A stretch of 6,394 nt of DNA from a virus (Duplodnaviria; Heunggongvirae; Uroviricota; Caudoviricetes): IMG/VR virus record IMGVR_UViG_2740892370_000006, one strand, 5' to 3'. Under the pieces are notes generated by a model that saw nothing but the letters and a program-made list of their open reading frames with translations, was not told the DNA's origin and searched no databases. A program made the translations under genes and the position numbers. Shown here in pieces: positions 1,559 to 1,897 of the stretch; the first letter of the stretch is position 1; each line of letters begins with the position of its first letter.

Positions 1559-1573
1559 TATTGTCTCTGATTT

Positions 1574-1589
1574 CTGTTGTCGTCAACAG
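1574..1589. promoter_or_regulatory. Inverted repeat CTGTTG-N4-CAACAG; candidate ParD (RHH) operator overlapping the parDE -35
   Basis: Sequence ctgttgtcgtcaacag has perfect 6-bp inverted arms around a 4-bp centre. It overlaps TTGTCG on the plus strand and TTGACG on the minus strand. RHH antitoxins typically autoregulate through short repeats of this kind. Confidence 0.35.
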
Positions 1590-1604
1590 GCAACGTGCTA
1601 TCAT
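1577..1604 (+). promoter_or_regulatory. Candidate sigma70 promoter for parDE (-35 TTGTCG, 16-bp spacer, -10 TATCAT)
   Basis: TTGTCG at 1577-1582 and TATCAT at 1599-1604, about 35 nt upstream of the parD ATG; SD GAGG at 1629-1632. Confidence 0.4.
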
Positions 1605-1639
1605 CGAATGGTGTTCTATCCTACTCCGTGAGGTTTACC

Positions 1640-1897
1640 ATGCGTACAACCCAACAATTCAGCATTACATTAACTAACGAAATGGCTGACATGGTGCGCG
1701 CCCGTGTGGCTTCCGGTGCCTATGCTTCAGAAAGCGAGGTCATTCGTGAAGGGCTTCGCGCACTGAATGAGCGCGATAAAGCAATCGAAGCGTGGTTAAC
1801 GCATTCAGCCGCCCCCTCTCTTGATTCTATCCGCGAAAATCCAAACAACGGACGCTCCATTTCACAGGTTCGCGCCGCGATTCGATCCGGGAAGTAA
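1640..1897 (+). CDS. parD: Type II antitoxin, ParD family (ribbon-helix-helix, COG3609-like)
   Basis: ATG at 1640 with GAGG SD 7 nt upstream; the track start at 1577 is a TTG and is rejected. The 85-aa product MRTTQQFSITLTNEMADMVRARVASGAYASESEVIREGLRALNERDKAIEAWL... has the RHH signature (VxSGxYxSxSEVIREGLR) typical of ParD. It ends 5 nt before the ParE-like gene. Confidence 0.85.
   Translation: MRTTQQFSITLTNEMADMVRARVASGAYASESEVIREGLRALNERDKAIEAWLTHSAAPSLDSIRENPNNGRSISQVRAAIRSGK

Follow-up and report, generated by a model that had tools for sequence, protein, structure and literature searches.

The inverted repeat CTGTTG-tcgt-CAACAG found upstream of the parDE toxin-antitoxin genes in this stretch of phage DNA (6,394 nt, referred to here as the window) is best read as lying within the -35 and spacer region of a PisrK-type promoter whose back-to-back partner is the parDE promoter, and is probably not an operator (overall probability roughly 0.68). 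Judged by comparison with related prophages, the feature as a whole is a parDE promoter with a candidate operator of the usual kind, situated beside the relic of a known sRNA/anti-repressor promoter. It is probably an ordinary evolutionary scar rather than a new switch, and the current understanding of toxin-antitoxin or phage regulation is unchanged by these results.

The window and its back-to-back promoter elements

A lambdoid prophage segment carried by several Shiga-toxigenic E. coli (e.g. NZ_CP027219) is 100% identical to the window. RefSeq places nearly all genes of the window on the minus strand in one early/nin-type block which, along the direction of transcription, consists of DUF1627, DUF977, ead/Ea22-like, a 114-aa ORF, a 90-aa ORF, DUF968, rusA, and DUF1133. 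The only plus-strand genes in the window are parD and parE. The gene nearest to parD on the minus strand had been described in an earlier note on this DNA as a 108-aa ORF; its annotated length is 90 aa with the first base of the ATG at 1504, and the divergent intergenic region is therefore 1505-1639. Further along the window, at 2748-3293, the ORF list contains an intact 181-aa ORF where RefSeq has only a frameshifted pseudogene (3085-3263). The features of the parDE region and the adjoining minus-strand genes are as follows.

184-1230, minus strand: DUF968 gene, confirmed by Pfam, after the 90-aa ORF and before rusA
1232-1504, minus strand: 90-aa ORF of unknown function (RefSeq; PHROG 1212), the first gene 3' of the orphaned promoter
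1544-1554, minus strand: junction, CGCACGCCAGC, common to the phage backbone and the first isrK bases of PhiR5_2
1557-1586, minus strand: orphaned PisrK-type promoter, -35 TTGACG, 18-nt spacer, -10 AATATT, predicted start near 1550
1574-1589: inverted repeat CTGTTG-tcgt-CAACAG, covering both overlapping -35 hexamers and running into the start of the PisrK spacer
1577-1604, plus strand: predicted parDE promoter, -35 TTGTCG, 16-nt spacer, TG, -10 TATCAT, with a putative start near 1611
1590-1593: hinge of variable sequence that separates the PisrK module from the parDE cassette, GCAA in the window, GTGG in the Salmonella relative L006, and a longer insert in the Yersinia (L007) and Izhakiella (L008) relatives
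1609-1623: degenerate palindrome of the ParD family, TGGTGT-tct-ATCCTA, 9/12 specified positions, from about -2 to +13 relative to the predicted start of parDE
1630-1634, plus strand: Shine-Dalgarno sequence GAGGT of parD, read from the sequence
1640-1897, plus strand: parD, 85-aa ribbon-helix-helix antitoxin (PGAP; PHROG 6494; Pfam PF03693, 32.1 bits against a cut-off of 21)
1903-2202, plus strand: parE, 99-aa toxin (PGAP; PHROG 5232; Pfam PF05016, 40.4 bits against a cut-off of 23)
2283-2319, plus strand: intrinsic terminator of parDE with a 12-bp stem, a 10-nt loop, and a U run; the hairpin is present in both the MFE and centroid structures

The parDE genes have the make-up of a type II ParD/ParE toxin-antitoxin system, as both domains score above their Pfam cut-offs and the antitoxin gene comes first with a short gap to the toxin gene. 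ParD is a distant match to Caulobacter ParD1 (3KXE), with weak sequence similarity to ParD proteins of solved structure (E about 4e-4 to 6e-3). ParE gave no match among PDB sequences. The hairpin following parE was missed by the consensus terminator scan because its loop is longer than 8 nt.

Upstream of parD, the plus-strand promoter proposed earlier, TTGTCG (1577-1582) followed after 16 nt by TATCAT (1599-1604), is present and scores 9/12. The -10 hexamer is preceded by TG (1596-1597), which makes it an extended -10. All relatives with parDE retain this extended -10 as GTGCTAnnnT, across four genera (ArgO145, Salmonella, Yersinia, Izhakiella), and so do six E. coli variants. Because the spacer varies by 3-4 nt among these relatives, the -35 does not stay in register. 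On the minus strand, the earlier note had paired TTGACG (1586-1581) with CAATAT at 17 nt. That hexamer does exist (1563-1558), but the element scored by the promoter scanner is AATATT at 18 nt (1562-1557), again with 9/12.

The -35 hexamers of the two elements overlap by 2 bp. Promoter-like sites as a class are not enriched in this part of the window, with three found in 1100-2800 against 2.2 +/- 1.6 expected. A divergent pair with -35 hexamers at most 10 nt apart occurs once in the window, and in shuffled sequences the same arrangement is rare, at 0.043 per window and 0.0003 per intergenic region. Of the earlier proposal of divergent promoters gated by one repressor, the two back-to-back elements with overlapping -35 hexamers hold up, with comparative support on both sides, while the shared ParD operator on the repeat does not. 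As far as these comparisons go, the divergent-promoter architecture is real in an evolutionary sense.

The minus-strand element and the loss of isrK, C4, and the anti-repressor gene

The minus-strand element was aligned in isrK orientation across 11 sequences, including the window, B7A, four phages that have isrK and lack parDE (APSE-8, PhiR12_2, Stx2 II, 24B), and PhiR5_2 (which carries higBA). Every one of the 11 has TTGACG and a spacer of 18 nt. Nine have TATATT or TATAGT as their -10, and AATATT is confined to the window and B7A. Four relatives that carry parDE were compared more closely, namely ArgO145 (L002) and loci from Salmonella (L006), Yersinia (L007), and Izhakiella (L008), the latter three encoding ParD proteins of 95%, 80%, and 73% identity, respectively. 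The minus strand of ArgO145, Salmonella, and Yersinia reads TTGACG-18-TATATT, and the Izhakiella -10 is TATAGT. The window and all six window-type E. coli copies depart from both forms in having AATATT, a T-to-A change at -12.

What this promoter serves in the relatives is apparent from the RNAs that follow it. In all four, Rfam identifies isrK and then a C4 antisense RNA on the minus strand directly left of parD, each above its gathering score. The 5' ends of the isrK matches (L002:2494, L006:1411, L007:1406, L008:1407) lie 7 nt past the minus-strand -10. The next gene downstream is an annotated anti-repressor in ArgO145 and matches the anti-repressor PHROG 2379 in Salmonella L006. Izhakiella L008 additionally reaches the gathering score for c4-a1b1 (RF03163), with two other relatives just below it. 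In Gifsy-1, PisrK has been shown experimentally to drive isrK-orf45-anrP (PMC4825925). Given that the isrK match begins 7 nt downstream in the relatives and is followed by C4 and an anti-repressor, the minus-strand element is assigned to the Gifsy-1 type of PisrK. A search of the window with Rfam (E<=1) returned neither isrK nor C4. With isrK, C4, and the anti-repressor all absent downstream, the window element is a PisrK remnant rather than a working member of an operon. On this comparative evidence, the element did not arise to serve the 90-aa ORF, DUF968, and rusA, but is the promoter of a lost isrK-C4-anti-repressor operon. A tRNA left of parD in the relatives was also considered on account of a GGTTCGAATCC motif; the tRNA scan found none and the motif is part of isrK. 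In Salmonella L006 the antitoxin RNA sok (hok/sok) lies at 352-502, downstream of the anti-repressor gene, and isrK-C4-ant of this locus is hence flanked by toxin-antitoxin cargo on both sides.

The closest known counterpart is PisrK of Salmonella Gifsy-1 (isrK-orf45-anrP-isrJ; PMC4825925), with which the window shares the -35 hexamer and the 18-nt spacing, a likeness drawn through the Rfam isrK matches in the relatives. In the relatives, whose layout is that of Gifsy-1, the promoter lies 7 nt before the isrK match and is followed by a C4-type RNA and an anti-repressor gene. The window differs in lacking isrK, C4, and the anti-repressor gene and in having AATATT in place of TATATT as its -10. 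Additionally, the upstream neighbour in Gifsy-1 is antQ and not a toxin-antitoxin pair. A second counterpart is the immI operon of P1 and P7 (c4 antisense RNA with a1/b1 targets, icd, ant). The relatives have the same order of promoter, leader with target sites, c4, and anti-repressor, and match C4 (RF01695) in Rfam, although they are lambdoid and APSE-type phages rather than P1. In P1 the C1 repressor governs immI through an asymmetric operator, and nothing comparable to this operator was found here. A search of the literature on parDE in ArgO145 and Stx phages and on the 24B ant promoter yielded nothing usable.

The point at which the operon was lost can be placed within a few nucleotides. 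Prophages with the same backbone that lack parDE match the window up to about 1554, and ArgO145 and a group of Stx2a phages match it from about 1557 onwards and differ from it in their left flank. Read on the minus strand, the window has AATATT-GC-CGCACGCCAGC and PhiR5_2 has TATATT-CTT-CGCACGCCAGC at the start of isrK. Stx2 II and 24B read CACGCGCCAGC where PhiR5_2 has CGCACGCCAGC. The same CGCACGCCAGC occurs in backbones without parDE, where it follows a strong terminator. The junction itself is found in 331 of 5426 complete E. coli genomes, and six diverged copies of it all retain GCAATATTG and GATTTCTGTTGTCGTCAACAGGCA.

These observations are most simply explained by the following sequence of events. 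The ancestral arrangement would be that of the relatives, in which parDE stands divergently beside an immI-like operon (isrK sRNA, C4 antisense RNA, anti-repressor) that lies behind TTGACG-18-TATATT/TATAGT. Recombination across the 11-nt identity of CGCACGCCAGC (~1554/1555) would then have swapped isrK-C4-ant for the block of the 90-aa ORF, DUF968, and rusA. PisrK would thereby have been orphaned and joined to the 90-aa ORF leader, and its -10 has gone from TATATT to AATATT.

The window and ArgO145 differ at 14 positions over 1199 nt, and 12 of these fall in the 66-nt promoter region 1562-1627; the parDE coding sequence is 100% identical. The differences that are specific to the window/B7A lineage include 1562, 1566, 1568, and 1591-1593. 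Neutral decay alone does not seem an easy explanation for the cluster at 1562-1627. The cluster might come from a recombination patch acquired from a different donor, from constraint being relaxed once isrK was lost, or from selection to weaken a promoter that now faces the antiterminator gene. Between the window and B7A, the promoter remnant and the parDE cassette diverge to the same degree (about 2.4%) and the backbone diverges more (about 11%), a pattern that reflects the history of the cassette and hence says nothing on selection.

The loss of the operon bears on how the minus-strand genes are expressed. It had been suggested that the genes downstream lack an obvious promoter other than one at the repeat. 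A need for this promoter is not supported, as they sit in a long minus-strand early operon. No minus-strand terminator was flagged in 1100-2800 by a scan that accepts loops of 3-8 nt only. The parDE hairpin at 2283-2319, when read on the minus strand, is followed by UUUGAUUUAU, and might therefore terminate partly in both directions. A strong intrinsic terminator stands ahead of the same genes in prophages without parDE, an arrangement that suggests antiterminated read-through as their usual route of expression. The minus-strand genes of the window would thus be expressed mainly by read-through of the early operon. The orphaned promoter itself has lost the T at -12; it may still fire weakly because AATATT retains the A at -11 and the T at -7. 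From its sequence, it would be at best a weak promoter, and that it has measurable activity is somewhat doubtful. A further proposal is that the overlap of the -35 hexamers makes the toxin-antitoxin promoter and PisrK mutually exclusive, which would couple toxin-antitoxin expression to anti-repressor control, and hence to prophage induction, in relatives with isrK-C4-ant and, in the window, give the 90-aa ORF/DUF968/rusA/antiterminator block a lysogeny-active input gated by a repeat-bound protein. This proposal is considered highly improbable.

The inverted repeat and the candidate ParD operator

The inverted repeat lies where the earlier note had placed it, with arms at 1574-1579 and 1584-1589 and a 4-nt loop. 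When the 135-nt intergenic region is dinucleotide-shuffled, 16.5% of the shuffles contain a perfect inverted repeat of 6 bp (loop 0-10 nt), and the whole window has 13 such repeats, so the repeat alone is unremarkable. It is identical in the six diverged E. coli copies and in Salmonella L006, and this invariance could reflect constraint rather than recent spread. ArgO145 and PhiR5_2 lack its outer pair. In E. coli C5 one arm is mutated, and in Yersinia L007 (TTATCG..CAACAC) and Izhakiella L008 (CTGTTG..CAATAG) the repeat is broken without compensation. Its core, TGTTGACGACAACA, is also found beside higBA in phage PhiR5_2, and most of the repeat adjoins an unrelated cargo gene in E. coli C5. 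Five related PisrK variants have TGTTGACGACAACA in common regardless of the adjoining cargo. The distance from the repeat to the parDE -10 shifts by 3-4 nt among relatives, and the part that varies is the hinge at 1590-1593. Across the loci compared, the repeat travels with the PisrK-side module and not with parDE.

Association with the PisrK side might mean that the repeat is an operator for a different regulator acting on this PisrK subtype, for instance a factor of phage or host origin that controls the anti-repressor, and that it was left as a relic after the loss of isrK. Its position on the PisrK -35 and spacer and the shared core in five variants would both fit. However, these five are close relatives and their sharing of TGTTGACGACAACA may be due to descent only, and the repeat is missing from the PisrK variants of APSE-8, PhiR12_2, Stx2 II, 24B, and Yersinia. 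There is also no second copy of the repeat in the 22-kb prophage segment, where the sole other match, with two mismatches, is no better than chance. A different repeat, AATACCCACAGGT, is used in the immunity region. Control by such a regulator is therefore regarded as unlikely. The AATACCCACAGGT repeat is present as two direct copies in the intergenic region of the prophage immunity genes (L001 16722-16765), and these copies are probably operators of the resident repressor.

The earlier note had instead put forward the repeat as a candidate operator for ParD or the ParD-ParE complex, through which one repressor would shut both parDE and the 90-aa ORF, DUF968, and rusA. This had some appeal, as the repeat extends over the -35 hexamers of both promoters and does not vary among seven window-type or Salmonella copies, and antitoxins of the ribbon-helix-helix class bind short palindromes in their own promoters (PMC10776004). 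An operator of this kind should be kept where the DNA-reading residues are kept and should remain linked to parDE, and the repeat does neither. It is broken in Yersinia and Izhakiella despite identical ParD residues 1-11 (MRTTQQFSITL), its distance to the parDE -10 is not fixed, and its core or most of its length lies beside higBA and another cargo gene. Moreover, a different palindrome accompanies ParD in 79 of 80 loci. Binding of ParD to the repeat thus appears very unlikely.

This other palindrome, TAGGAT-N3-ATCCTA, was found with at most two mismatches 16-33 nt before the ATG in 79 of the 80 loci encoding ParD homologues, and the ParD N-terminus, MRTTQQFS(I/V)TL, is nearly invariant among the 80. 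Its near-perfect form is TAGGAT-(T/A)(A/T)A-ATCCTA (L006-L085), in hosts that belong to the Alpha-, Beta-, and Gammaproteobacteria and other phyla. TAGGAT-N3-ATCCTA is probably the operator of this ParD family, and no description of it was found in the literature searched. In the enterobacterial clade the palindrome takes the form TAGTGT-TCw-ATCCTA and lies just 3' of the new extended -10. Close relatives match 10/12 specified positions, and the block ATAGTGTTCnATCCTAyTC is the best-conserved part of their upstream region. The degenerate copy in the window has the same offset of 16 nt from the ATG as in L006 and L008, and the G at 1610 is unique to it among the aligned palindromes.

The likely ParD operator is therefore corrected to 1609-1623, a member of the TAGGAT-N3-ATCCTA family, which on sequence grounds is the likeliest candidate and likelier than 1574-1589. 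ParD or the ParD-ParE complex would repress parDE through this palindrome remnant, which lies over the predicted start. As the remnant keeps 9/12 positions, it may be that ParD binds it weakly or uses further sub-sites. ParD2 of V. cholerae binds short motifs across its own promoter (PMC10776004), with which the candidate at 1609-1623 is consistent. More broadly, the autoregulated parDE promoters of V. cholerae parDE2 (PMC10776004) and RK2 likewise have a ribbon-helix-helix ParD encoded upstream of ParE and short palindromic motifs over the core promoter and start. The motifs themselves differ, as the operator of V. cholerae parDE2 consists of three GGTA motifs whereas this ParD family has TAGGAT-N3-ATCCTA. 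Among the distant loci, a -35 with at least 4/6 matches lies 16-18 nt upstream of TAGGAT in 31 of 76, compared with 11 at a control offset, and in these 31 the palindrome consequently overlaps the core promoter. TAGGAT was also considered as a -10 for distant relatives in general; these counts are suggestive and do not extend to a general rule.

A final candidate, in which the repeat is a LexA (SOS) box that places PisrK and the orphaned promoter under SOS control in the manner of the Gifsy anti-repressors, was rejected as weak and is hardly credible. Although CTGTTGTCGTCAACAG fits the CTGT-N8-ACAG core exactly and anti-repressors under LexA control are known (PMC3121763), the site matches the consensus TACTGTATATATATACAGTA (PMC8072944) at only 10/20 positions and has an approximate heterology index of 18.0 against 1.0-9.6 in 23 reference boxes, all of these being rough values. 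A random CTGT-N8-ACAG site of median score does better, the site is outside the best eight in the window, and its CTG/CAG ends have been lost in ArgO145, PhiR5_2, Izhakiella, and Yersinia.

Cargo exchange upstream of PisrK

E. coli C5 keeps the backbone and the promoter remnant to about 1587 and then continues into an unrelated plus-strand gene, which places the cargo exchange from about 1588. Divergent cargo has been inserted repeatedly at the edge immediately upstream of the PisrK -35, including parDE, higBA, an orphan parD, and others. In PhiR5_2 the cargo at this edge is higBA (L089 1588-2116), and in E. coli C5 it is an unrelated 110-aa gene (L102 580-912). A further locus (L003 2584-3562) holds an orphan parD, a lipoprotein-like ORF, and a HigA-like HTH protein, with no parE.

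The parDE cassette also shares its position in the backbone with the cargo slot of the Qin prophage, which lies upstream of a small ORF and ydfU and holds relBE-hokD in E. coli K-12. The cargos found in this slot in Qin and other prophages are co-directional with the operon and end in a strong terminator, whereas parDE is divergent and came with a fragment of a foreign promoter. The window thus illustrates that a foreign promoter fragment can enter a phage early operon along with a cargo cassette. In the prophages that lack parDE (L005 about 1960-2010; L091-L094), the same backbone slot holds hokD, a doc-family toxin, or relBE-hokD, in each case closed by a strong intrinsic terminator (ACCCGCTTCGGCGGGTTTTGTTTTTT) immediately ahead of the 90-aa ORF.
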